A DNA stretch of 64,000 nt from Escherichia phage E26. Of this stretch, positions 37,845 to 55,860 are shown piece by piece. How positions within the stretch are numbered: the first letter of the stretch is position 1; each line of letters opens with the position of its first letter. The DNA lies in sequence record MN655998.1. One strand, 5' to 3'. The position numbers were made by a program, and so were the translations under genes. The notes below the pieces were generated by a model, which saw only the letters and a program-made list of their open reading frames with translations, was not told the origin of the DNA and did no database searches.

Positions 37845-40800
37845 TTAAAGCGCCTAGTGTAACTAGCTTGACAATAGAAAAATTGTCTGCTAATCAGGCG
37901 TATATCACATGGGATGACGTAGGCGAAAACTTCTTTTATTTTGTGGAGTTAGCCGAAACCAGAACACGAGACGGGGAGATCATCCCCGTCGATGAGTTAA
38001 GCTGGGTAAACCTGGGATATACTGCCGAACAAAACTGGTTTGAGGATAAAAACCTTTTTCCAGAATATTATTACAAGTTTCGTGTAGCAGTAGCCGCAGA
38101 AGGATTTGAACAAAGTAAATGGGTTGAAACAGAAGAGTTTCAGACATTTAAAACAAACGCATATAATTTTTCTATGATGCGAGAGTTCAACCTTGCAAAT
38201 GAGTTTATAAAGGAAAAATTTACATACGATAATCGAGAGTATGTCAAGTTTAATACTGACCTGATTCAAGCATCATTGATGAAGGAAGATTTTGTCTTTA
38301 GTCCTGAATATGCAAACATGACAAATATCTCAAACTACATTGTAGTTGATGAGAACTTTCATGAAATACAGGATCACATAGAAAAAGTTTGTATTGATAT
38401 AAACCGCACTATGTTAGCGGAAATGAACGGTGTTTTGTACCTTTTCGAACGGTTCCAGCCGATCGTGAAAGTGTCAAATGATAAAGGTCAATCATGGAAA
38501 GCATACAAGGCTTTTAATGACCGTGTAGGCAATCCGGTTTCCCGTACATGCGTTTATCAGTCTAAAACAACTACTTACGTTTTAGGTTATGACCGAATCT
38601 TTTACGGACGACAAGCGAGCGATACTCGATGGAGCGCGGACGATGTTCGATTTAGTGATGATACGATCACTTTTGCAAAGGTTGGTGACGAGAACGATTT
38701 AGGGTTTGATGTTGAGGTATTTGGCGTATTTTCCCGATTAACAGGCGACACCACAAAATACGCCGAAGCGATGGCGTGTAGTGACGATTATTTGTGGGTT
38801 GGTGCTAAGGATGTTATTCGCAGGATTCGCCTTAAGAATACTCCGGTCGATACCGTACAGGGTTCGCCTACGTTTGGAGAAAAAATATTCGATCCTGATG
38901 TTATCAGAGTAACAGGAAATGATAAAGCTGTCATTCAGAAAATGGATGTGATCGACGGTAAATTGCTTGTATTTGTTACGGGTGAAGTTAAACAGCGTTA
39001 TCAAGATCCAACTAAACCAGAAAACGTTGTTCCGTCAGATGATGCGGGTGTATACTTAATAGGGAGTGATGGTCTGTCTTTTCAGAGAGTATTTGGCAAC
39101 ACTCCGCAGGAAAGGGAATATATTCAGCATGGGTTCAGTAATATGTCAACCAATGGTGATGAGGTGTTCATAAGCCATTATAATCATCACTTCGAAAGCA
39201 TTTTACCTGATCCAGAAACTGCCGCGAAATATGAATTAGGCGAAGCTGTGAAATATTCTCAGGAGCCAACTTATCTAACTGATAAGAAAATACATCAAAC
39301 TACTTTCAGAGCAAGTTATGATGATTTGCGTATTTGGGAGTTAGGACCGCAAGCGTATTATAATGAGGCTGATTATACATGGATGCGTCGAAACGGTGTC
39401 CGTGTGTGGATCACAAATGATAATCGCCCGTTGGTTGTTTATCCAGAGGTTATCTATACTCAAGAAGTTGATACGTCCGGCATTCTTGATCAAAATAGGG
39501 TCAACCGAGAAGTTTATGATAAAGGGACCGTGACCTGTTATCTTAACAATGTTAAATTTGAAGGATTCAAACAATATGCATCCGGTGTAATGTTCCATAA
39601 AAACACGGGAGAGATCATAGGATTCTATCAATTTAACTATCGCGTTCGTGATCAGGTTGGTGTATATTGGAAACCTACAAATGTAGCATTTGTTGCTGAA
39701 TTGCAAAATCAGGTTCGAGAGGTTCCCTGGGTTCCGGTTCACTACGATCGAGAGCAAGATCCAGATTTGCGACCTTTACTGAATAAGATGACACCTGATA
39801 GCTTTTTACTTGAGAACGAAAATTTCAGAAAATTCTCTGAATATTATCTGCAATTCTTAAGTGATGGTTCAGGAACATATTATAATAAACTAAAAAATCT
39901 GATTAAAAACAAATATCCACGCGAGCAAGATGCATATGAGTATCTTTGGTCAGAGATGAACAAACGAAACATCTATGCAGATAAAAACAAGCGAGATGCG
40001 GTAGTAAGATTCTTTGAATCCCGCAAATCAGATTTTTATTCCACTAAGGGCGTGGAGGCTTCTTATAAGTTCTTGTTTAAGTTACTTTATAATGAAGATG
40101 TGGAAATTGAGGTTGAATCACAAGCCGGACTAGAGTATGATATTGTTGTTAGTTCAACGAACATTGACGAGGATATCGTAGGTCGCACGATTTATACTCC
40201 AACCGGACGGGCTAACGTGACTTATCTTGAAAGGGAATATGAAGGTGGTCGCCTACGCTGGCGAGTAACCATTCATAACCTGATCGGGCGGTTCGAAGAA
40301 GGTCAAGTGATCAAATCAGAGAAAACAGCGTTTGAAGGGATGATCCTTGTTGGTGTACGTGGTAAAGAGTTGTTGAGTAGTTCAATCGACTATATCAACC
40401 GCTCACGAAGCCAATACACCATGAAGATTAAAAGTGCATTGCCAGTTTCTCGCTATGCAAATGATGTAATGCGATTCGTTCATCCTGTCGGCTTTGGGTT
40501 TATCGGTGTTACCCTGCTTACGATGTTCATTAACAGCGGGTTAAGCATGAAACACACAGAGACGATAATTCAATCTCTAAAAAATTATAAGTTTGACAGC
40601 GGATTGCCTAGCGTGTATCCTGATCGGGTGGCAGACCTTGACGTTGACGGAAACATTAAGAAAGACCCGCTTACCGGAAAAGCATTATATTTGACTTCAC
40701 CTTTAATTGGTGAAGAATTTCCGGTTCCCCCTGAATATGATCAGGAGAACAGCGAATTGTTCCACGGACTTAAAGCAAGCGAACGAAGATTTGCAATGAG

Positions 40801-41968: not shown

Positions 41969-41997
41969 TTGACAGTCTTGTCTGGTAAAGGTATAAT
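41969..41997 (+). promoter_or_regulatory. sigma70-type promoter (TTGACA-N17-TATAAT) on plus strand inside late region
   Basis: Perfect -35 and -10 hexamers with 17-nt spacer 30 nt upstream of the inserted ORF at 42027. Confidence 0.7.
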
Positions 41998-43480: not shown

Positions 43481-43488
43481 TATAAATA
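43481..43488 (+). promoter_or_regulatory. T4-type late promoter (TATAAATA)
   Basis: Exact TATAAATA 28 nt upstream of gene 9 start. Confidence 0.65.
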
Positions 43489-43515
43489 ATACATCATAAC
43501 ATGAGGAATTAAACA

Positions 43516-44370
43516 ATGGCACAAGTTCCAAAGAAAAGAATAGACACCGGTACTGTCGGCAATCCATCGACTGGCGATATCTTATATGATGGCGGCAATA
43601 AAATTAACGATAACTTTGATTCAATATATGACGCATTTGCTGATCAGCGGTTTAAAGACGTAGACCACGGTGTGGGAAGAATGGTTATTCATGCAACCGG
43701 ATACTATCAGAAGCATCCACGTCAAAGCTACGCGGGTTCCGCTGTTGAGATTGGGAGTCTACACGATATCGATACAACTCAAGGCGCACTTATTGCTATT
43801 CTACCTAAAGCAAAGGTCGGCGAGGGTGTTGTATTCATAAATAGTAACGGTAGCCTTTCAACGACGACACCGCTCAATATTCGAACTCAAGCAGGTGATT
43901 CTATTAGCGGTTATTCCGGTGATGCTACAATAACACAACCATTTTCAAAAGTCACTGTTTGGTGTACTGCCGTTGAAGGTAGTCGCGTAACGTGGCGATT
44001 GGGTATCGAAAGTATGTTTACCGATACAACAACGCCATTAGATAAAACAGTTAACGTAACTGGAGTAGCAACAAACGTTGCTATTGCCGCAAAAACAGAA
44101 TACGTTTCCATCAAATTATTAACTACCGCTAGCAATACATCCGGTTCAAAAATGCGTTCAAGTGAAACGCTACTGATGATTGATTCTAAAGCCGGAAAAG
44201 TTTATGCGACGGAATATGCAGTTTTGCAGAAGACAGAAGATGAACTATACATGGTTCGTTATTTCATCGGTTCCGGCGATAAAGTATATGCAGAGTATAA
44301 GGCTACTGGCGAAAATATTCGTTTAGCAGTTAAAGCCGTAGACACTATTAAAATCGGGGTTGCTACATGA
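43516..44370 (+). CDS. 9: baseplate wedge tail fiber connector gp9
   Basis: Synteny and size (284 aa vs about 288 in T4). Confidence 0.75.
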   Translation: MAQVPKKRIDTGTVGNPSTGDILYDGGNKINDNFDSIYDAFADQRFKDVDHGVGRMVIHATGYYQKHPRQSYAGSAVEIGSLHDIDTTQGALIAILPKAKVGEGVVFINSNGSLSTTTPLNIRTQAGDSISGYSGDATITQPFSKVTVWCTAVEGSRVTWRLGIESMFTDTTTPLDKTVNVTGVATNVAIAAKTEYVSIKLLTTASNTSGSKMRSSETLLMIDSKAGKVYATEYAVLQKTEDELYMVRYFIGSGDKVYAEYKATGENIRLAVKAVDTIKIGVAT

Positions 44371-46169
44371 AACAATTAATTAATATCGGTAACGTTGTTG
44401 ATGACGGTACAGGTGATTATTTAAGAAAAGGTGGTCAAAAGATTAATGACAACTTTTCTGAACTTTATACTAAGCTGGGGGATGGTGATATCCCTCATGC
44501 ATCCGGCGCGTGGAAAACTCACACACAACCAGTATTAAAACCAAATTTTGGTGATGCATGGGCGATTAATACAACGAACAACTCTGTTTCTGTTGAATTG
44601 CCTAAAGGAAGCGCGAGTGATTACAATAAAACAATTAAACTTCGTGATGTTTGGCGCTCATGGGCTGCACATAACGTAACATTGAAGCCAGCACAAGGTG
44701 ATACCATTAAGGGATCTCCAATCGACCGTGAGTTGTATAAAGATTTCATGGATGTTGAATTGGTTTATTGTGCTCCTGGACGTTGGGAATATGTCGAAAA
44801 TAAACGAGTAGATACTATCACCACTTCCGATTTAAGCACAGTCGCCAAAGAAGTTTATATTGCAACCGAAGGACAAACAGACTTCCCCAATGTGTTTGGT
44901 TCCAATACTTACAATATTCGAAATGTTGAAGTGTATTATCGCGGTAACTTGCTTTATTATGGCAAGGATTTAACCGATGATTCTAACTATGGTTCAATCG
45001 GTGAAAACGGTGATATTGTTCCGCTGGACGGTAAAAGCATTAAATTACGCTTCCCTTGTTCGGCGGGTGATACCATTCAAATCATAACTTATATGGACGG
45101 TATCGCATCCTTCCGGTCAAGCTATATTACTCATACAATCCGCGTTTATGAAACAGGAATGACCACTTTGGAATCCATCCCTGGTGAAGTTTGGGTTGGT
45201 GAACTAGCTAATAAGAAAGAATTTACTAATGCTGAATTAGGCGTAAGTAAGCGAGATCTTATTAATCCAAATTCATTTGAATTGCTAATCAACGGCACAC
45301 AAATGATTAAAGCGGGTGATGCGGATTTACCTTCCTTTATTTGTGAAGGCGCTGACGGTGAAACGGAAGAAACCTGCGTACTTGCTGGCGGTCAATGGGT
45401 GGAATCTGGGGAAGATTATTCATTGATGTTCGACGAAAACAGCGTGGTGACTGGTATTAAATTATCTAAAGCACTAGATAACCGAGATACTATCACAATT
45501 CGCTGGTTTAATAATGATATCGGAACATTAATGGAATGGGACGGTGTAGGCGGTATTAAAGAAAAAGCAGATAAAATCTATCTTAATAACGAAGATGAAG
45601 TTACTCTGACAAATCGAATTGAATATACCGATTTCCAGAATCCAAGCCAAGCAACTAAACGCCCAATGGAAGATTATACAGGTCGTGTGATGGATATCTA
45701 TTCCATATTCGATATTTTCTATCCTATAGGCACAATTTATGAAAATGCGCATAACCCAGCTAACCCAGCGACCTATATGGGATTTGGTACATGGGTACGG
45801 TATGCGGAAGGTGAATTTTTGGTTGGTTGGTCATCCGATGCAAGCGATCAAAACTTCGCACTAAACAATAACGATCTTGATACACATGGTCAACCTACAC
45901 ACACCGCAGGTGGTAACGGTGGTGATGTTGCATATCAGATCAAGAAAAATATGATTCCTGAATTACAGAGCAGCGATCGAGTTCTTGTAAAAGATGATAA
46001 CGGAAATATTATTATCGGTGGTTGTCAGGTAGATCCTGATGCAGTAGGTCCAGCGTTTACCAAATATCGCGAAGATAATGTTAAAGTTAATCAGGGAAAT
46101 ACTGACCCATCAATGATGGGTATTCTTCCTCCATACAGAACTGTCTATCGTTGGCTAAGGGTAGGTTAA
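44367..46169 (+). CDS. 10: baseplate wedge subunit and tail pin gp10
   Basis: Synteny and size (600 aa). Confidence 0.8.
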   Translation: MKQLINIGNVVDDGTGDYLRKGGQKINDNFSELYTKLGDGDIPHASGAWKTHTQPVLKPNFGDAWAINTTNNSVSVELPKGSASDYNKTIKLRDVWRSWAAHNVTLKPAQGDTIKGSPIDRELYKDFMDVELVYCAPGRWEYVENKRVDTITTSDLSTVAKEVYIATEGQTDFPNVFGSNTYNIRNVEVYYRGNLLYYGKDLTDDSNYGSIGENGDIVPLDGKSIKLRFPCSAGDTIQIITYMDGIASFRSSYITHTIRVYETGMTTLESIPGEVWVGELANKKEFTNAELGVSKRDLINPNSFELLINGTQMIKAGDADLPSFICEGADGETEETCVLAGGQWVESGEDYSLMFDENSVVTGIKLSKALDNRDTITIRWFNNDIGTLMEWDGVGGIKEKADKIYLNNEDEVTLTNRIEYTDFQNPSQATKRPMEDYTGRVMDIYSIFDIFYPIGTIYENAHNPANPATYMGFGTWVRYAEGEFLVGWSSDASDQNFALNNNDLDTHGQPTHTAGGNGGDVAYQIKKNMIPELQSSDRVLVKDDNGNIIIGGCQVDPDAVGPAFTKYREDNVKVNQGNTDPSMMGILPPYRTVYRWLRVG

Positions 46170-46170
46170 T

Positions 46171-46815
46171 ATGATTTCGAAAACACGTTCAAAAGCTAGT
46201 GTATTTTCCAGCGATGCGGCGTTTATTTCATACGATCCAGGATCGAAAGATCCTGTTATCGGTGGTTCTCGTCCAATTGGTGGCGTTAATGTCGATCAAT
46301 CAAGAAAAGGTTCCTATGTGAGCAACGTTCAATCTGCAATTGATGACCTTTATTCATTGTCAATGATCCGAATTGGTGATGTGTTGGTTACAACCAACTC
46401 AACTCCACCACAAGCCGCAGGACAGATTGAAACTCTGTCATTTTCTGGTTCTGTTAACAATCAGCATAATCCAGACGCAAACAAAGTATTAATTGATGTT
46501 TTGGGTTATCCATTTATTGTTGATGTTGGGTCTTCCGGCGTTTCTCTATGTGAGAAAGTAACGGAAAAATTTACCGAACTAATGAATAAAAACATTATGT
46601 TCAAAGAAGTAAAAAGAAAAGGAAGTAGCAACGACCAATTAGAAATTCATTATATCGATTCTCTTGAACATCCACCAACCGATATTAACAAGTACGGAAT
46701 TACAATCACAGGAAATGTTGATTCTCCTGCTCGTGTTGGTTATGGTTCATGGTCTCGAATGGGTACAGAAGAGAAATTTGGAACTACCCTATATTATTTC
46801 AAACGTATTGCATAA
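46171..46815 (+). CDS. 11: baseplate wedge subunit and tail pin gp11
   Basis: Synteny and size (214 aa). Confidence 0.75.
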   Translation: MISKTRSKASVFSSDAAFISYDPGSKDPVIGGSRPIGGVNVDQSRKGSYVSNVQSAIDDLYSLSMIRIGDVLVTTNSTPPQAAGQIETLSFSGSVNNQHNPDANKVLIDVLGYPFIVDVGSSGVSLCEKVTEKFTELMNKNIMFKEVKRKGSSNDQLEIHYIDSLEHPPTDINKYGITITGNVDSPARVGYGSWSRMGTEEKFGTTLYYFKRIA

Positions 46816-46826
46816 GGTGATGTATA

Positions 46827-48227
46827 ATGGCAAACAATACTATTAACCATGTAAAAGACGATGCTCAATACGTCAAGTTTAACCCTGTAAATGATTGGCC
46901 TCAAAGCATTACCAACGTACAAGCGGCTTTAGCCGCTATTAATGGCTTTGCCGTAAATGGATTACCGGACGCTACGGAAGATACAGCCGGGATCGCTGCA
47001 ATCGCAACTCAGGAAGAAGTAAACGACGGGACAGTAGACAATAAGATCGTGACTCCAAAAACACTGGCTGTTAAAATGTCACGTCCAGATGCCACAAAAG
47101 AAGTAAAAGGCATTACCCGATTTGCCACGATGGAAGAATCGCTGCAAGAGAGCAACGAGAACATAGCAATCGGTCCAGACACACTAAACCATTACTTCAC
47201 CACTAAAAAGGCGTCAGAGAGCGTTCAGGGGACTATTAAGATATGTTCTCTTGAGGCGGCAAAGATTGGCAGTGATGACACAATGGCAGTAACACCGAAA
47301 AAGATGCACACTGCCATTGCACAGATTGTACCTGGATTAATTCCAGATCAAAACACAGCAACCGAAAGCGCACAGGGTTTAGTTCAGTTAGCAACCAATG
47401 CGCAAGTTTTACAAGGCCAGATTCGAGAAGGTTTTGCAATTAGTCCTTATGCATTTGCAAATGCTCGCGCCAATGAGAATCAGGCGGGTACTGTTAAGAT
47501 CGCCAGTCAGTCACAGATGAATGCTGGTTCAGATGATACTGTAGTTGTTTCTGCTAAGAAGTTTGCAAGCACTAAGGCAACAACGTCTCAATACGGTATT
47601 GTTAAACTACGAGACACCGTGGGAAGTGAGGCTAACGCTGCACTATCAGCAAATGCTAAGGTTCTTCCTAGCACTGGCGGTACGGTAAGCGGAAACGTCT
47701 ATAAAGGTTCAAACTCAGACGGCAACCAGTTTGTTACTAAAAATGAATTAGCGAATCACGCAATGCCAATTGGTGGTATTATCCTTTCTGGATTCAATGC
47801 CGATCGAGGTGACTTTCTGATCTGTAATGGTCGTTCGCTGAATAAAAATCAATATCCGCAATTATTTTCTGCGATTGGTTATACCTTTGGTGGTTCAGGT
47901 GACAATTTTAACATTCCTGATATGCGCGGTTTAGTTGCTCGTGGTTGCGATCATGGAAGAAACCTTGATCCAGGTCGTCGATTTGGTTCTTATCAAGAAG
48001 ACGCAATGCAGAGAATTACTGGTAAATTCCCTGTAGCTGACCGCTGGCGCGGTTGGTATGGTGGAGCATTTACTGCACAGCGCGGTCAATGGAGCACGAA
48101 CTATAAAAACGGTGGTGGTGATGATTGGGGTACTACTGTTAACTTTGACTCAGGAAGATCCGTAAGAACGGCTAACGAGACTCGCGTCAAGAGTCTGGCA
48201 TTAAACTATATCATAAGGGTGCGCTAA
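46827..48227 (+). CDS. 12: short tail fiber gp12
   Basis: Repeated (Q/K)GxVx(L/I)A(T/S)xxE/Q motifs in N-terminal half typical of gp12; synteny. Confidence 0.75.
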   Translation: MANNTINHVKDDAQYVKFNPVNDWPQSITNVQAALAAINGFAVNGLPDATEDTAGIAAIATQEEVNDGTVDNKIVTPKTLAVKMSRPDATKEVKGITRFATMEESLQESNENIAIGPDTLNHYFTTKKASESVQGTIKICSLEAAKIGSDDTMAVTPKKMHTAIAQIVPGLIPDQNTATESAQGLVQLATNAQVLQGQIREGFAISPYAFANARANENQAGTVKIASQSQMNAGSDDTVVVSAKKFASTKATTSQYGIVKLRDTVGSEANAALSANAKVLPSTGGTVSGNVYKGSNSDGNQFVTKNELANHAMPIGGIILSGFNADRGDFLICNGRSLNKNQYPQLFSAIGYTFGGSGDNFNIPDMRGLVARGCDHGRNLDPGRRFGSYQEDAMQRITGKFPVADRWRGWYGGAFTAQRGQWSTNYKNGGGDDWGTTVNFDSGRSVRTANETRVKSLALNYIIRVR

Positions 48228-49996
48228 TGATTGAACAATTAAACATCCACGAGATCCCACATGTTGACGGTGTACCAAGCGAAGGACAGCACCGTATTAA
48301 CTGGATCAAGAATGGCGAATGTTTAAGCGCAGCAACGACACAGACTGGCAATGACGGGACGCTTAACCGCGCCCCTGTTGCAATTCAAGAAAACGTTGCA
48401 CGCGTAAACGAAAACGCAAAATCAACCGTCGCTAAAGTTAACGAGGTTGTAACGGCGGTTAACGATATTAAAACAACTTTAGGGGTAATTTCTGACGGAA
48501 GTATCATTGATGTGGTTAACCAGACTGTCGCAAAAGTTGAATCCGTCGAAGAGAACTTAGGAGAAACAGCAAGAACTCTGCAAACAACGGTAGACGCTGT
48601 GTCAGAACTTAACATCAAGATTGGTGATCGCCCCGCTGCCGATCCGAGCACAAGAACAATCTATGATGACATTTCTTTCATCAAACAAGAAATGGGTTCT
48701 TATCCTAACTTTAATATCAATGGTTCCCCTGATGCTGGCAGTTCCGGTTCTGGCATCAAATACCGAGTTATTCAGAATACCGCAGCATTAAATGACCACG
48801 GTCGCCGAATCGTTCAGCTTGAAAACGACTGGCAAGATTCTGACGTAGGCGAGTTAACAAGACAAGTTAACAAAATGCGCAGTGAGATCGGAGACACGTC
48901 TCTTGCCACACAAGAAAATGTGTATGTTCGTCTCCGCACCAACGCAAGAAACATTGCTAACTTATCAAACGAAGTTCTAGAAGTCAAGAAAGCAATTTTG
49001 TTTGATTCAATCCCTGATATCGGGACTAAAGTCACTACGCTGGGAACTAATTATGAACGTCTAAACAATGATGTTAATGGTGTAGATTCCGGTATTCGTC
49101 CTCGTCTTCTGGCTGTCGAGAATAAGATCGGAACGCCTCAATCGGCTGGAAGCATTGATTATCGATTAACCAACACAGAGCGAGAATTTTTAGATCTTAA
49201 ACAGGTTGTTGGTGTAAGCGGTGCTGACGGTTTGCGCGGTGAAGTTGTTCGACTTTCCAATGAGATTGGCACTGACAGCGATCGACATACTCTAGCCGGA
49301 CGTATTAAAGTTGTAGAAAACACTCAGGGTCGGTTAGAAGCAAGCGTACAGGACATGGAACAGATTGTAGGTGATCGCGAATCAGGTTTGACCGCTGGCG
49401 TTATTAAACTATCAAGTGATATCTATGGCGATGATGGTTCAGAAGATCCATTTACTCAGAAAGGCGTGATTAAAATCGTCAAAGAGCTACAAACATCTAA
49501 CGGAAACAAAGTAGATGATGTACCTGATGACGGTTTTCATTATCTGCGTAAGCACGGCGAATGGGTGCAAGTTGCATATGCTGCTGGAGCATTTAAAAAT
49601 ACCGCAGATATTACGGTTGAACTTGACGAACAGGATGTTTATAAACCGATTCCGCTAAACGATATGACCGAAGAAGTTCCTGCGCGTGGAATGGTTAAGA
49701 GCGAATCTCTTGTTACGGTTAACGACAAAGGCTTATTCCGTTGTGATTTCCGTTGTTCTGTAAATGCGGCACATAACGCTACTTTCGTAGTCGGTATTGC
49801 TAAAAATGGTCTGATTGTACATGAGGTACGAAATGGTCATTATGGAGCTGATGATTTAATTAGCTATTCTACCAGTGCTTTCCTAAATATTGAAAAGGGC
49901 GACCGGATCGATATTCGCATTAAGGGCGTATCCGAAGAAGCATTAGCGCAACAGCTACAAATTAAAGAGTTCCTCTTTGGGATTTCTCCGGTATAA
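48227..49996 (+). CDS. wac: fibritin (whisker) Wac
   Basis: 589 aa, long coiled-coil-like repeats, between gene 12 and gene 13. Confidence 0.7.
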   Translation: MIEQLNIHEIPHVDGVPSEGQHRINWIKNGECLSAATTQTGNDGTLNRAPVAIQENVARVNENAKSTVAKVNEVVTAVNDIKTTLGVISDGSIIDVVNQTVAKVESVEENLGETARTLQTTVDAVSELNIKIGDRPAADPSTRTIYDDISFIKQEMGSYPNFNINGSPDAGSSGSGIKYRVIQNTAALNDHGRRIVQLENDWQDSDVGELTRQVNKMRSEIGDTSLATQENVYVRLRTNARNIANLSNEVLEVKKAILFDSIPDIGTKVTTLGTNYERLNNDVNGVDSGIRPRLLAVENKIGTPQSAGSIDYRLTNTEREFLDLKQVVGVSGADGLRGEVVRLSNEIGTDSDRHTLAGRIKVVENTQGRLEASVQDMEQIVGDRESGLTAGVIKLSSDIYGDDGSEDPFTQKGVIKIVKELQTSNGNKVDDVPDDGFHYLRKHGEWVQVAYAAGAFKNTADITVELDEQDVYKPIPLNDMTEEVPARGMVKSESLVTVNDKGLFRCDFRCSVNAAHNATFVVGIAKNGLIVHEVRNGHYGADDLISYSTSAFLNIEKGDRIDIRIKGVSEEALAQQLQIKEFLFGISPV

Positions 49997-50004
49997 GAAA
50001 TTAA

Positions 50005-50026
50005 AGGGGCGTTAAGCCCCTTTTTC
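50005..50026 (+). terminator. rho-independent terminator after wac
   Basis: Hairpin AGGGGC-GTTA-AGCCCCT followed by TTTTT. Confidence 0.7.
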
Positions 50027-50042
50027 GTTTATAGGTGATATT

Positions 50043-50975
50043 ATGTCAGGATATGTAACCAATAACCCAAGAGAATTAAAAGACGCTATTCTGCGTCGTT
50101 TAGGCGCACCAGTAATTAACGTAGAAGTAACAGAAGACCAGATTTACGATTGTATTCAGAGAGCATTAGAACTCTATGGGGAATATCATTTCGATGGTGT
50201 GAATAAAGGATATAAAGTATTTCGTGTCAGTGCAGAGCAAGCGCAACATGGGGTATTTGATTTAAGCGATTCTGGAGTATTCGCAGTAACTAAAATAATT
50301 AGAACAAACGTAGGTAGCGCGGCTACGATGGATGGCACTGCCGTTTATCCGTGGTTTACTGACTTTCTGTTGGGTTTAGCGGGTGTAAATGGCGGTTTAG
50401 GATCTGGCTGTAGTAAATTTTATGGACCAAATGCAATGGGCGGTGATCTGGGATATTTCGAACAGCTTATGAGCTATCGAGCCACTATGCAAAATATGCT
50501 TAATCCGCTGCCAGATTATTGGTATAATAGCGCAAACGGACAACTTAAGATCACAGGAAACTTCCGAGAAGGCGATCTCATTGTTGTTGAATTGTATGTT
50601 AAAAGTTATGTTGATGTACCGGACATGATGGGGGCGGTTGCTGGTTATGCTCATGCGGGAGGATGTTCTACCGCTGGCGGGATTAGCGCCGTTTATGATA
50701 ATCCAACCGCCGGATTGAGCGGTATTGTTGCTGGCATGGGTCCGATCAGCGAGAACAAACAGGGCGCATATAATAACCGCTGGGTTAAAGACTGCGCGAC
50801 CGCGTTTACTCGTGAGCTATGGGGGCAGATCTTAGCTAAACATCAAGGGTTGCAATTACCAGGTGGTGTAACAGTTGATGGTGTCAGAATCATCGAAGAA
50901 GCACGCGCGGATATTGAGAAATTACGACAAGAATTGGAATTACTAGACCCACCGTTTGGGATCATTATGGTTTAA
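50043..50975 (+). CDS. 13: neck protein gp13
   Basis: Synteny and size (310 aa vs 309 in T4). Confidence 0.8.
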
Positions 50976-50984
50976 TGTTTACAA

Positions 50985-51021
50985 TCCGTTCTCGTTTATG
51001 TATAATCAAGGCGAGAACGGA
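50985..51021 (+). promoter_or_regulatory. 10-bp stem-loop upstream of homing endonuclease start
   Basis: TCCGTTCTCG/CGAGAACGGA stem; loop contains TATAAT-like hexamer; RBS lies just 3' of stem. Confidence 0.5.
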
Positions 51022-51036
51022 TATAGGAGTTTAACA

Positions 51037-51933
51037 ATGAATCATTATGTGTATAAAATAACCAACAAATTAAATGGTAAAATCTATATCGGCGTCCGTA
51101 GCTGTGATTGCGATATCGACAAAGATCCTTATATGGGTAGTGGGGTATTAATTAAAAAAGCTATCCATACTCATGGAGTTGAAAATTTTCACAAAGAAAT
51201 TCTCGAAACATTTGAAACAAGAGAAGAAGCTAATCAAGAAGAAGCCAGATTAGTGACACTAGATTTTGTTAACCGACAAGACACATACAATCTAATTGAA
51301 GGTGGTCTGGGTGGTTGCTACTGGAATACATTTTCAGAAGAAAAAAAGGAAGAGATCAAGAACAAATTAAGACAACATAAACCAGATCCAGAACAATTAA
51401 GAAAATTACATGAATCAAATAGAGGCGTTCCGCGTTCGGAAGAGACTAAATTGAAAGTTAGCCGAGCAAATAAAGGAAGAATCCACACGGAGCAGTCAAG
51501 AAAAAACATGTCCGAAGGGCGAAAAGGTATGGTGTTTTCAGAAGAACACAGAAAAAATATATCAAAAGCAAATGTAGGACGTGTACATTCTCCAGAAACA
51601 TTGGAAAAAATAAGATTAGGGAATTTAGGAAAAAAATTAAAACCAGAAACAATAGAAAAACTAAGAGAGGTTGCCAAGAATCGTCCTCCTGTCTCAGAAG
51701 AAACAAGAAGAAAACTATCAGAGGCAGCAAAGAAACAAATAAGAAACTTCGGGGATAAAATAAGTAAAGGGAAAATAGATAAACCTATATCAACGAGCAA
51801 AACAGTGTATGCGGAAGGTGTTGAATATCCTTCTGTTAGTGTTTGTGCAAGGGCATATGGGATTTCAAACACATCAATATTGAAGAGAATTAATTCAACG
51901 TCAGAAAAATGGAAGGAGTTTTATTATGTTTGA
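51037..51933 (+). CDS. GIY-YIG homing endonuclease (Seg-like) with tandem NUMOD3-type repeats
   Basis: N-terminus [17 protein letters not shown] is a GIY-YIG motif; repeated ExxKxKxS/R units; ATG at 51037 with AGGAG RBS. Confidence 0.8.
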
Positions 51934-52666
51934 TAATACCCTATTTGCTCGCCTTGAATCGCAAAAGGATTATGAGAATACACGACAATCAGAGATTCTT
52001 AATCCTTATGTGAACTTTCACAAATATACAAATACTCAGACGTTAGCCGACGTTATGGTCGCCGAAGCTATTCAGATGCGAGGTGTAGAATTATATTACA
52101 TCCCTCGTGAATTTGTCAAACCAGACATGATCTTTGGCGAGGATGTTCAAAGCAAATTTACTAAAGCATGGAAATTTGCTGCTTATATTAACTCATTTGA
52201 TGGGTATGAAGGCGCGGGTAATTTCTTCTCTAGTTTCGGTTATCAAGCCAATGATGAACTAACTTTTACGGTTAATCCTAACCTATTCAAACATCAAGTA
52301 GATGATCAAGAGCCAAAATCAGGTGACTTGATTTATATTCCAATGAGTAATGATTTATTTGAAATCAATTACGTCGAGCCATATCAGCCGTTTTTTCAGG
52401 CTGGCAAAAATGCCATGCGTAAAATTATTGCAGAGAAATTCGTATATAGCGGCGAGGAATTGCGACCAGAATTACAACGCAATGAGGGAATTAATGTTGA
52501 TGAGTTTGCGGATCTGGATCTTGCACCGATCACTAATCTGGACGGGTTAACAGATATCAACTTAGATCAGTACAAAGAAGATAAGCAATTCAGAAGCGAA
52601 GGACAAGATTTTATTGATCCGTTTGATCCTATTAATGGCAAGGGTTCACCTTTCGCCGATTTTTGA
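51926..52666 (+). CDS. 14: neck protein gp14
   Basis: Synteny and size (246 aa). Confidence 0.75.
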
Positions 52667-52692
52667 TAAATACTCATAAACAAGGGGGTCAA

Positions 52693-53526
52693 ATGTTCGG
52701 TTGGCACTATAATTCGTCAATTAGAAGGTATATTGTATTGCTGGGTAATTTATTCTCCGGCGTACAAATTAAAAGGGTGCGTAGTGACGGTGAGCGGTTT
52801 ATTAAAGTTCCTATCACCTACGCAAAGAAAGAAAAATTCATGATGAGTCTGGACAAATATAACAATATCTCAAGCGAGGAAGACGTAGCAAAGGTAGAAA
52901 CTATTTTACCGCGTATGTGTCTTTCTTTGATTGATATGACATACGCCCAGAACTTTAAAACAAATATTGCAAATAAGACAGTACCAAAATATACGGCTGA
53001 TGGAATCAGGAGCGTAACACAATATAATCCTGTACCATATAAGTTTACTTTCGAGTTAGGGATTTATACGCGTAACGAAGATGATATGTTTCAGATAATT
53101 GAACAGATTCTTCCTTACTTCCAGCCTCATTTTAACTGCAAGATTAAAGAACTACACGGTAATGATGTATGGATTGACCGAGATATTCAGGTCACAATTA
53201 GTTCTATTACTCCAGATGAACAGGTAGGCGAAGATAAGTTTTCTCGTCGTCGTCTTGAGTGGACCATTATGTTCGAATTTATCGGGTTTATATATCCTCC
53301 AGCTACCGACGTTAAGGGGGAAATTAGAACGATTTATCTTGATTTTCATGCCAATTCTCGTGAATTGAATCCTAGCGGTAATTTTGAATCAGTGGACCAC
53401 GAGGTCGTTAAACGTGACGTCGAGCAAGAAGATTGGGACGGAACAATCAAAGAATCATATTCTAGTGATATTCCAATACCAGTTGCACCAACTCCACCGG
53501 GTCCACGTATTGTAAGAGAATTTTAA
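52693..53526 (+). CDS. 15: tail sheath stabilizer / tail terminator gp15
   Basis: N-terminus MFGWHYNSSIRRY and internal motifs match T4 gp15 as recalled; ATG at 52693 with AGGGGG RBS (track start is TTG at 52663). Confidence 0.85.
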   Translation: MFGWHYNSSIRRYIVLLGNLFSGVQIKRVRSDGERFIKVPITYAKKEKFMMSLDKYNNISSEEDVAKVETILPRMCLSLIDMTYAQNFKTNIANKTVPKYTADGIRSVTQYNPVPYKFTFELGIYTRNEDDMFQIIEQILPYFQPHFNCKIKELHGNDVWIDRDIQVTISSITPDEQVGEDKFSRRRLEWTIMFEFIGFIYPPATDVKGEIRTIYLDFHANSRELNPSGNFESVDHEVVKRDVEQEDWDGTIKESYSSDIPIPVAPTPPGPRIVREF

Positions 53527-53539
53527 GAGGTATTTTATT

Positions 53540-55860
<2,321 letters not shown>

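Follow-up and report, generated by a model that had tools for sequence, protein, structure and literature searches.

The Seg genes of T4-type phages (SegA–G of T4 and SegH of RB3-like phages) are free-standing GIY-YIG homing endonuclease genes; they lie between conserved genes and spread by double-strand-break repair with co-conversion (PMC2988022). I-TevI of the T4 td intron is intron-encoded, carries a zinc finger in its linker and is controlled by a late promoter, a hairpin that sequesters its ribosome-binding site (RBS) and autorepression (PMC2988022). For phages RB49 and Phi1, a promoter-early stem-loop (PeSL) architecture has also been described (Arbiol et al. 2010, PMC2839356). Here we analyse a 64,000-nucleotide (nt) stretch of Escherichia phage E26 (MN655998.1; hereafter the window), in which an open reading frame (ORF) of 298 amino acids (aa) lies between neck genes 13 and 14, and compare this locus with the described systems. 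The source of the window is an RB49-like, T4-type phage in the genus Krischvirus; over the final 24 kb, identity is 98.7% to phage ELT4 and 98.1% to RB49.

We consider it likely that the ORF belongs to a Seg-like, free-standing GIY-YIG homing-endonuclease cassette that was inserted into the 13/14 spacer of a Krischvirus phage. The original prediction, made from the sequence alone, had placed a 298-aa ORF in the gap between genes 13 and 14, and the gene is real, with a start codon, a stop codon and a Shine–Dalgarno sequence:

51037–51933, + strand: predicted free-standing GIY-YIG homing endonuclease gene, 298 aa, from ATG 51037 to TGA 51933 (Pfam, PHROG and TIGRFAM matches)
51025–51029, + strand: Shine–Dalgarno sequence AGGAG of the endonuclease gene, 7 nt before ATG 51037 (read from the sequence)

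The gene is intergenic and lies outside any detected intron. It shares 8 nt with gene 14 (ATGTTTGA, 51926–51933), an overlap that had been called correctly. The overlap with gene 13 that had also been proposed does not exist: a 61-nt spacer separates gene 13 from the endonuclease start codon, only a mechanical reading from TTG 50956 reaches into gene 13, and homologues start at MNHY or MEHY. We also rejected the 311-aa reading returned by some gene callers, which starts at ATG 50998 inside the loop of an upstream hairpin (see below), because no Shine–Dalgarno sequence precedes it, the predicted transcript would start downstream of its ATG and Phi1 does not keep the extension open. An intron-encoded reading was rejected as well, as Rfam detected no group I intron and no other RNA family in 49900–52800. 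The GC content of the gene is 34.7%, compared with 38–44% in the neighbouring genes.

From its profile matches and structural model, the protein is a predicted I-TevI/Seg-type GIY-YIG homing endonuclease with a separate C-terminal module of NUMOD3 helices and a helix-turn-helix (HTH):

51037–51321, + strand: GIY-YIG catalytic domain, residues 1–95 (homologue profile, Foldseek, conserved columns)
51331–51738, + strand: eight NUMOD3-like units of 17 residues each, residues 99–234, a predicted string of short helices (Pfam NUMOD3, autocorrelation, model helices)
51796–51930, + strand: predicted C-terminal beta-beta/HTH/beta DNA-binding domain, residues 254–298 (profile, Foldseek, model secondary structure)

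The 298-aa protein matches Pfam SegE_GIY-YIG (PF19835; 34.2 bits, cut-off 25), Pfam NUMOD3 (34.6 bits, cut-off 20.4), TIGR01453 ‘group I intron endonuclease’ (78.9 bits, cut-off 56) and PHROG 314 ‘homing endonuclease’ (9e-62). A search of the PDB with the single sequence gave no match at E ≤ 1; a profile built from 41 homologues matched the whole I-TevI catalytic domain (1LN0/1MK0, residues 1–92, E = 4e-9) and the I-TevI DNA-binding domain (1I3J, E = 0.004). The AlphaFold2 model, with a mean predicted local distance difference test (pLDDT) score of 89.5, shows a beta-beta-alpha-beta-alpha fold over residues 1–95 (pLDDT > 93), eight short helices and a C-terminal beta-beta/HTH/beta domain. When compared with the PDB by Foldseek, the GIY-YIG domain recovers the I-TevI catalytic domain (probability 1.00, template-modelling score 0.64) and the C-terminal domain recovers the I-TevI DNA-binding domain (probability 0.98), with no confident match beyond these two. 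PF19835, the I-TevI profile match and the model all agree with the GIY-YIG N terminus that had been read from the letters. The NUMOD3-like nature of the following repeats was likewise recognized correctly, although their number was put at about six; the 17-residue register and the model helices give eight. The period is strictly 17 residues, with autocorrelation peaks at offsets 17 and 34. A recent repeat expansion was considered and rejected because Tandem Repeats Finder detects no DNA-level tandem repeat beneath the units.

Among 39–41 homologues, residues Y6, Y17, G19 and N85 do not vary and E69 is conserved to at least 90%; these align with Y6, Y17, G19, N90 and E75 of I-TevI, respectively. 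Invariance of R21 is confined to the four junction endonucleases that were compared. Like I-TevI (1LN0, 1MK0, 1I3J), the window protein joins an N-terminal GIY-YIG domain through an extended linker to a C-terminal minor-groove helix and HTH. Unlike I-TevI, its gene is free-standing, has a sigma-70-type promoter and encodes eight NUMOD3 helices but no CxxC pairs. Outside Krischvirus, the nearest matches are genes labelled SegH (35% identity over 98% of the window protein), and others are SegD-like; the SegH-like homologue that we checked adjoins nrdD, whereas the window gene lies between genes 13 and 14. In every feature that can be judged from sequence, the gene agrees with a free-standing GIY-YIG homing endonuclease gene, and its product is a predicted nuclease.

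We counted the states of the 13/14 junction in the Krischvirus records of the phage collection INPHARED and read metagenome contigs in addition. The INPHARED records show four states:

Empty junction: 41 records, with a 36-bp spacer that contains the GGGGGAGTATTCCCCC hairpin and GGAG, 96.8–100% identical to RB49
Makalu type, 271 aa: 7 records
Phi1 ‘SegC’ type, 194 aa: 6 records
Brandy type: 1 record, a frameshifted remnant

A mobile insertion, as proposed by the original prediction, would have been hard to maintain if all relatives carried the ORF and endonuclease-free alleles did not exist. The junction comparison that it suggested argues otherwise, because 41 records have an intact empty junction. 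These include ELT4, despite its 98.7% identity to the window over 24 kb, and genes 13 and 14 are adjacent in RB49, the type member of the genus. The endonuclease type of the window itself does not occur in INPHARED, where the best match is 37.5% identical. At 99% or more aa identity, the gene is found in GenBank as QHB48747.1 of phage E26, for which the label ‘hypothetical protein’ can now be corrected, and in a cluster of 13 sequences, with only three variable residues among the full-length members listed. We read 33 metagenome contigs, and in every locus shown the window-type gene stands between gp13 and gp14 with the same 8-nt overlap.

The sequence around the insertion departs from that of the endonuclease-free relatives in a graded manner. 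Over most of the 24 kb, mismatches to ELT4 and RB49 number 0–5 per 250 nt (at most 2%). They climb to 20 per 250 at 50500–50749 and to 38 in 224 (17%) at 50750–50973; downstream of the insertion they amount to 6 in 75 and then run slightly above background (6–13 per 250 against ELT4). The upstream part of this profile defines a tract at the end of gene 13:

50500–50975, + strand: divergent and probably co-converted 3′-terminal tract of gene 13, with its core at 50803–50975 (mismatch profile against ELT4 and RB49)

Most changes in this tract are synonymous. Positions 50803–50932 are identical in the window, in L005 (a contig from a related phage) and in phage PHB13, and are only 81–83% identical to RB49 and ELT4. 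Between the window and L005, 5 of 1,162 nt differ across 50802–51963, whereas divergence is about 8% immediately upstream and about 5% immediately downstream; none of the five differences alters an amino acid (100% aa identity). Among 16 carriers, pairwise diversity in the gene is 0–1.4% per 100-nt window (mean about 0.6%), as against 3–5% in the adjacent 400–500 nt on each side, so that the endonuclease gene is 5–8 times less diverse than its flanks. Presence/absence polymorphism, a gradient of divergence in the flanks, low diversity in the gene and exclusively synonymous differences form the pattern expected of a mobile homing-endonuclease gene, and support the probable mobile insertion that had been proposed.

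The cassette is closely integrated with the ends of its neighbours:

50043–50975, + strand: gene 13, neck protein gp13, 310 aa, the upstream neighbour (ORF; PHROG 211 head-tail adaptor Ad2, 6.8e-40; annotated as gp13 in RB49 and Phi1)
51926–52666, + strand: gene 14, neck protein gp14, 246 aa (Pfam T4_neck-protein, 1.7e-101)
51913–51933, + strand: gene 14 initiation region inside the endonuclease 3′ end, with AAGGAG at 51913–51918, ATG at 51926 and the endonuclease TGA (51931–51933) in gene 14 codons 2–3

Compared with RB49, the window has the cassette in place of the native spacer and its hairpin and Shine–Dalgarno sequence (GGAG), as far as codon 3 of gene 14, and both the Shine–Dalgarno sequence and the ATG of gene 14 fall within the last codons of the endonuclease gene. 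The endonuclease stop codon recodes gp14 residue 3 from N to D, and codons 3–6 read GAT AAT ACC CTA in place of the AAC AAC ACT CTT of endonuclease-free alleles. All carriers have in common the recoded 18 nt at the end of gene 13 and the recoded 18 nt at the beginning of gene 14, and the ATGTTTGA overlap recurs in Phi1, in metagenome contig L006 and in every carrier of the window-type gene. These changes suggest that the target spans the empty junction and that the recoded bases, together with the replaced spacer, may make carriers immune to cleavage. Deletion of the cassette would also be penalized, since an essential initiation region lies within it. A parallel is provided by the promoters embedded in T4 seg genes (PMC2988022).

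Several points weigh against an active, mobile gene of this kind. Shortening of the first helix in the GIY-YIG domain leaves the position of the counterpart to the catalytic Arg27 of I-TevI uncertain; the segment from YIG to the second helix is six residues shorter and falls in an alignment gap. As shown by the decayed remnant in phage Brandy, occupants of the junction are not all active. Ordinary mosaic recombination might account for part of the divergent gene 13 haplotype, as local patches of divergence occur elsewhere in the window. Finally, the early-promoter reading of the sequence upstream of the gene (see below) is based on consensus match and conservation only.

Some of these points would also suit an immobile relic, in which a past invader lost cleavage and was kept as the supplier of the RBS and start context of gene 14, passing on only vertically and by ordinary recombination. 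The unplaced arginine, the gene 14 initiation region embedded in the ORF and the decay seen in Brandy all fit such a history. However, the ORF is intact, with Y6, Y17, G19, E69 and N85 conserved; the full-length cluster members listed vary at three residues only; all five L005 differences are synonymous; and ordinary linkage does not predict a gene 5–8 times less diverse than its flanks. We therefore regard a relic as unlikely. The Brandy allele (L026 1088–1748, MZ504876.1) is itself a frameshifted, apparently decaying GIY-YIG remnant that sits in the loop of the GGGGGAGTATTCCCCC spacer hairpin and has a 14-nt overlap with a divergent gene 14. As to divergence elsewhere in the window, patches at 40500–40749, 45750–45999 and 49500–49999 have 12–50 mismatches per 250 nt against ELT4 and/or RB49 (background 0–5) and show no tie to any insertion that we examined.

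The upstream end of the cassette consists of a predicted promoter and a stem-loop that overlap one another:

50978–51006, + strand: predicted sigma-70-type early promoter, TTTACA (50978–50983), 17-nt spacer and TATAAT (51001–51006), with 11 of 12 consensus matches and a predicted start near 51013
50984–51022, + strand: stem-loop with 11-bp arms (50984–50994 and 51012–51022) that spans the promoter spacer and −10 box (RNA fold, compensatory pairs in Phi1)

The TTTACA-17-TATAAT sequence directly follows the gene 13 stop codon (TAA, 50973–50975). A 10-bp stem at 50985–51021 with a TATAAT-like loop had been noted before, and this stem (50985–50994/51012–51021) is perfect, extends to 11 bp through the pair A50984–T51022 and holds TATAAT in its loop. 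Its predicted RNA fold has an energy of −22.8 kcal/mol (z = −5.16), and none of 200 shuffled sequences did as well. At 11/12 stringency, the window contains 23 sigma-70 sites where 2.3 are expected. Almost all near-consensus sites lie on the minus strand of the early region, where about twenty near-consensus promoters occur between 600 and 33000, and many of the window's early promoters show the PeSL-type layout, with a stem-loop placed in the spacer or covering the −10 box.

The promoter/stem-loop cassette also precedes three other endonuclease genes at the junction, those of metagenome contigs L006 and L008 and of Phi1. The equivalent promoters read TTTACA-17-TACAAT in L006 and TTGACT-18-TATGAT in Phi1, and the stem differs from that of Phi1 by two compensatory pairs (C-G and C-G versus A-T and T-A). 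As the predicted start near 51013 lies in the 3′ arm, RNA initiated at this promoter would lack the hairpin, leaving an unstructured leader and an open Shine–Dalgarno sequence. In the fold predicted for transcripts that read through from gene 13, the core stem reaches as far as 51022, 3 nt before the Shine–Dalgarno sequence (51025–51029), and the minimum-energy structure places only three weak pairs on that sequence, two of them G-U, with the gene 13 stop region. The stem-loop is not terminator-like because no T-run follows the stem, and the terminator scan did not list it.

Its likeness to the hairpins that regulate seg and intron endonuclease genes, suggested by the original prediction, holds only in part. 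Control of the I-TevI, segB or mobE (Aeh1) kind, in which a hairpin sequesters the RBS and an internal late promoter yields late transcripts without the 5′ arm, was rejected because the Shine–Dalgarno sequence lies outside the core stem and the late promoter TATAAATA is missing, with a sigma-70-type promoter in its place. TATAAATA is absent from the + strand of 43481–55853, and no copy with one mismatch or fewer occurs inside 50976–51933. Among described hairpins, that of seg43(25) in Aeromonas phage 25 comes closest (PMC2988022). An operator-like match between a hairpin arm and the empty target (the 7-mer TCCGTTC, also present at the gene 13 end of RB49) was dropped because we estimate that it is likely to arise by chance and the Phi1 hairpin lacks TCCGTTC. 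The window gene carries a predicted promoter of its own, which many T4 seg genes lack.

The element resembles a PeSL in having a near-consensus sigma-70 promoter right after the upstream stop codon and a stem-loop over the spacer and −10 box. It differs from the PeSLs of RB49 and Phi1, and from seg43(25), in that its stem (ATCCGTTCTCG/CGAGAACGGAT) is not composed of a G-tract and a C-tract, and its surroundings are the conserved late neck/terminase cluster, not a hyperplastic region. PeSLs front ORFans in hyperplastic regions, whereas the window element fronts a homing endonuclease gene. For these reasons of stem composition and location, we call the candidate element PeSL-like rather than a typical PeSL.

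This resemblance raises a second alternative, that the module, with the endonuclease gene as cargo, was shuffled into place when promoter/stem-loop motifs underwent homologous recombination, perhaps by way of mini-circles (Arbiol et al. 2010). The cassette does begin with a PeSL-type promoter/stem-loop, and the empty site has a G5-loop-C5 stem-loop typical of PeSLs (PMC4122927). Left junctions also vary by type: the Makalu-type gene lies upstream of the retained spacer hairpin, the Brandy type lies in the hairpin loop, and the others replace the hairpin. Against this, the cassette has no PeSL at its 3′ end and terminates inside gene 14, its stem offers little homology to G/C-tract PeSL stems, and the flank-divergence gradient and recoded target-side bases are predictions of homing with co-conversion. 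On balance, shuffling of this sort seems to us very unlikely.

For the Seg-like homing cassette, we infer activity, target, expression timing and the role of the hairpin as follows. Host RNA polymerase would transcribe the endonuclease gene early from the sigma-70-type promoter of the cassette, and a start inside the 3′ arm of the stem-loop would yield a transcript with no hairpin and a free RBS. The protein may then bind DNA through its HTH and string of NUMOD3 helices, and its GIY-YIG domain would cut the 13/14 junction of a co-infecting, endonuclease-free relative. Recombinational repair from the carrier genome would copy in the cassette together with a short gene 13 flank and the first gene 14 codons. 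Carriers would be protected by replacement of the 36-bp spacer and recoding of the adjacent bases. As the cassette holds the RBS of gene 14 and overlaps its start codon, simple deletion would probably be costly to the phage.

Other Krischvirus phages carry related but distinct endonuclease genes at the same junction. The presence of a gene at this site in Phi1 has been on record since the annotation of that genome, and the Phi1 segC gene is mentioned by Arbiol et al. 2010 (PMC2839356). Phi1 ‘SegC’ (ABR24660, 194 aa; copies in ECD7, kvi and phiS) shares with the window gene the 13/14 site, the 8-nt ATGTTTGA overlap, a homologous upstream promoter/stem-loop with two compensatory stem changes and a homologous C-terminal HTH domain (25 of 43 residues identical, 58%; both proteins end in EKWKEFYYV). 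The proteins are only about 40% identical overall, and Phi1 has about two NUMOD3 units where the window protein has eight. Phi1 also keeps an RB49-type gene 13 3′ end, and its gene 14 5′ region is divergent instead. Although the Phi1 gene bears the name SegC, its position argues against reading the window gene as an orthologue of T4 SegC. T4 segC lies between 5.1 and 5.3 (PMC2988022, Table 1) and not at 13/14, and the nearest matches outside the genus are labelled SegH; the window gene should therefore not be named SegC.

The endonuclease of Makalu_001, KFS-EC, PHB13 and MIZ4-5 (271 aa) occupies the same junction with the same order of GIY-YIG, NUMOD3 and C-terminal domains, and is the best full-length INPHARED match (37.5% identity; about 63% in the catalytic domain). 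In contrast to the window gene, it leaves the native spacer hairpin in place, lying upstream of it, and does not overlap gene 14. Its upstream hairpin is a different one with no sigma-70 consensus, and its C-terminal domain is unrelated in sequence (10 of 43). That hairpin (GGGTATATG-loop-CATATACCC, 2440–2466) has the loop ATAA in Makalu_001 (L001) and TTAT in PHB13 (L002), and the loop is thus inverted between otherwise near-identical cassettes.

Metagenome contigs add two more junction types, P0002 (304 aa, L006) and P0003/P0004 (263 aa, L008), bringing the endonuclease types at the junction to at least six, at 37–47% identity to the window protein. In the window, L006 and L008, the promoter/stem-loop and codons 1–35 are 88–98% identical at the nucleotide level, and identity then drops to about 51% at one shared point, window position 51140. 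PHB13 combines the window-type gene 13 haplotype (130 of 130 nt, 50803–50932) with a Makalu-type endonuclease gene. From these alignments, the chimeric occupants and PHB13 are apparent recombinants of endonuclease genes and flanks. Homologous ORFs at the same place in several relatives might instead point to an ancestral Krischvirus gene that was repeatedly lost, but this is hardly credible given the almost unchanged recurrence of a 36-bp spacer, hairpin and RBS included, in 41 records (repeated precise deletions being implausible), the adjacency of genes 13 and 14 in the type member RB49, and occupants that differ in their left junctions and are only 37–47% identical to the window protein.

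More tentatively, and with considerable doubt, we propose that the 13/14 junction may be a long-lived contest site for one GIY-YIG lineage, in which intragenic modules are swapped behind a conserved expression module, creating new specificities and super-invasion of immunized alleles. That recombination generates specificities permitting such super-invasion is speculation. In a full-text literature search on homing endonucleases in these phages, the junction was not discussed as a multi-type hotspot.

Free-standing GIY-YIG endonuclease genes are ordinary in T4-like genomes, and the locus changes no concept. What it offers is an endonuclease gene with its own predicted host-type early promoter in a late structural operon, where it supplies the RBS of an essential neck gene, and a single 36-bp spacer in which at least six endonuclease genes, related but divergent and in some cases chimeric, have settled. 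The junction may thus provide a compact natural system for the study of endonuclease diversification, replacement and local mosaicism in therapeutic coliphages.

Several other features of the window and its relatives were seen in passing. Between wac and gene 13, a bidirectional terminator-like hairpin (50003–50023; AAAGGGGC-loop-GCCCCTTT, then a T-run) is present, and no canonical late promoter lies between it and gene 13. Upstream of it, window 47916–49650 (the 3′ end of gene 12 and most of wac) is only 68–82% identical to L005, with 98–99% identity from 49694 onward; this stretch resembles a short-tail-fibre/whisker module that has been swapped. A perfect sigma-70 consensus (TTGACA-18-TATAAT, 12/12) occurs at 52090–52119 on the minus strand, antisense in gene 14. 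It is identical in RB49 and Makalu_001 and degraded in Phi1 and L006, and we rejected it as a real promoter; it is probably due to chance because it is conserved only where the coding sequence is conserved. Another 12/12 promoter, on the + strand at 41969, precedes a small ORFan cluster between genes 8 and 9, and constitutes a second early-promoter cassette in the late module. Finally, the large terminase gene of L005 (gene 17; L005 7529–8518, corresponding to window 54525) has an in-frame insertion of about 330 aa right after the Walker-A sequence SRQLGK, which the window lacks. The insertion ends in THN|T and contains the LAGLIDADG-like motifs LGYWLGDGH and IMDSDGC, and because of this end and these motifs it is apparently an intein with a homing endonuclease.

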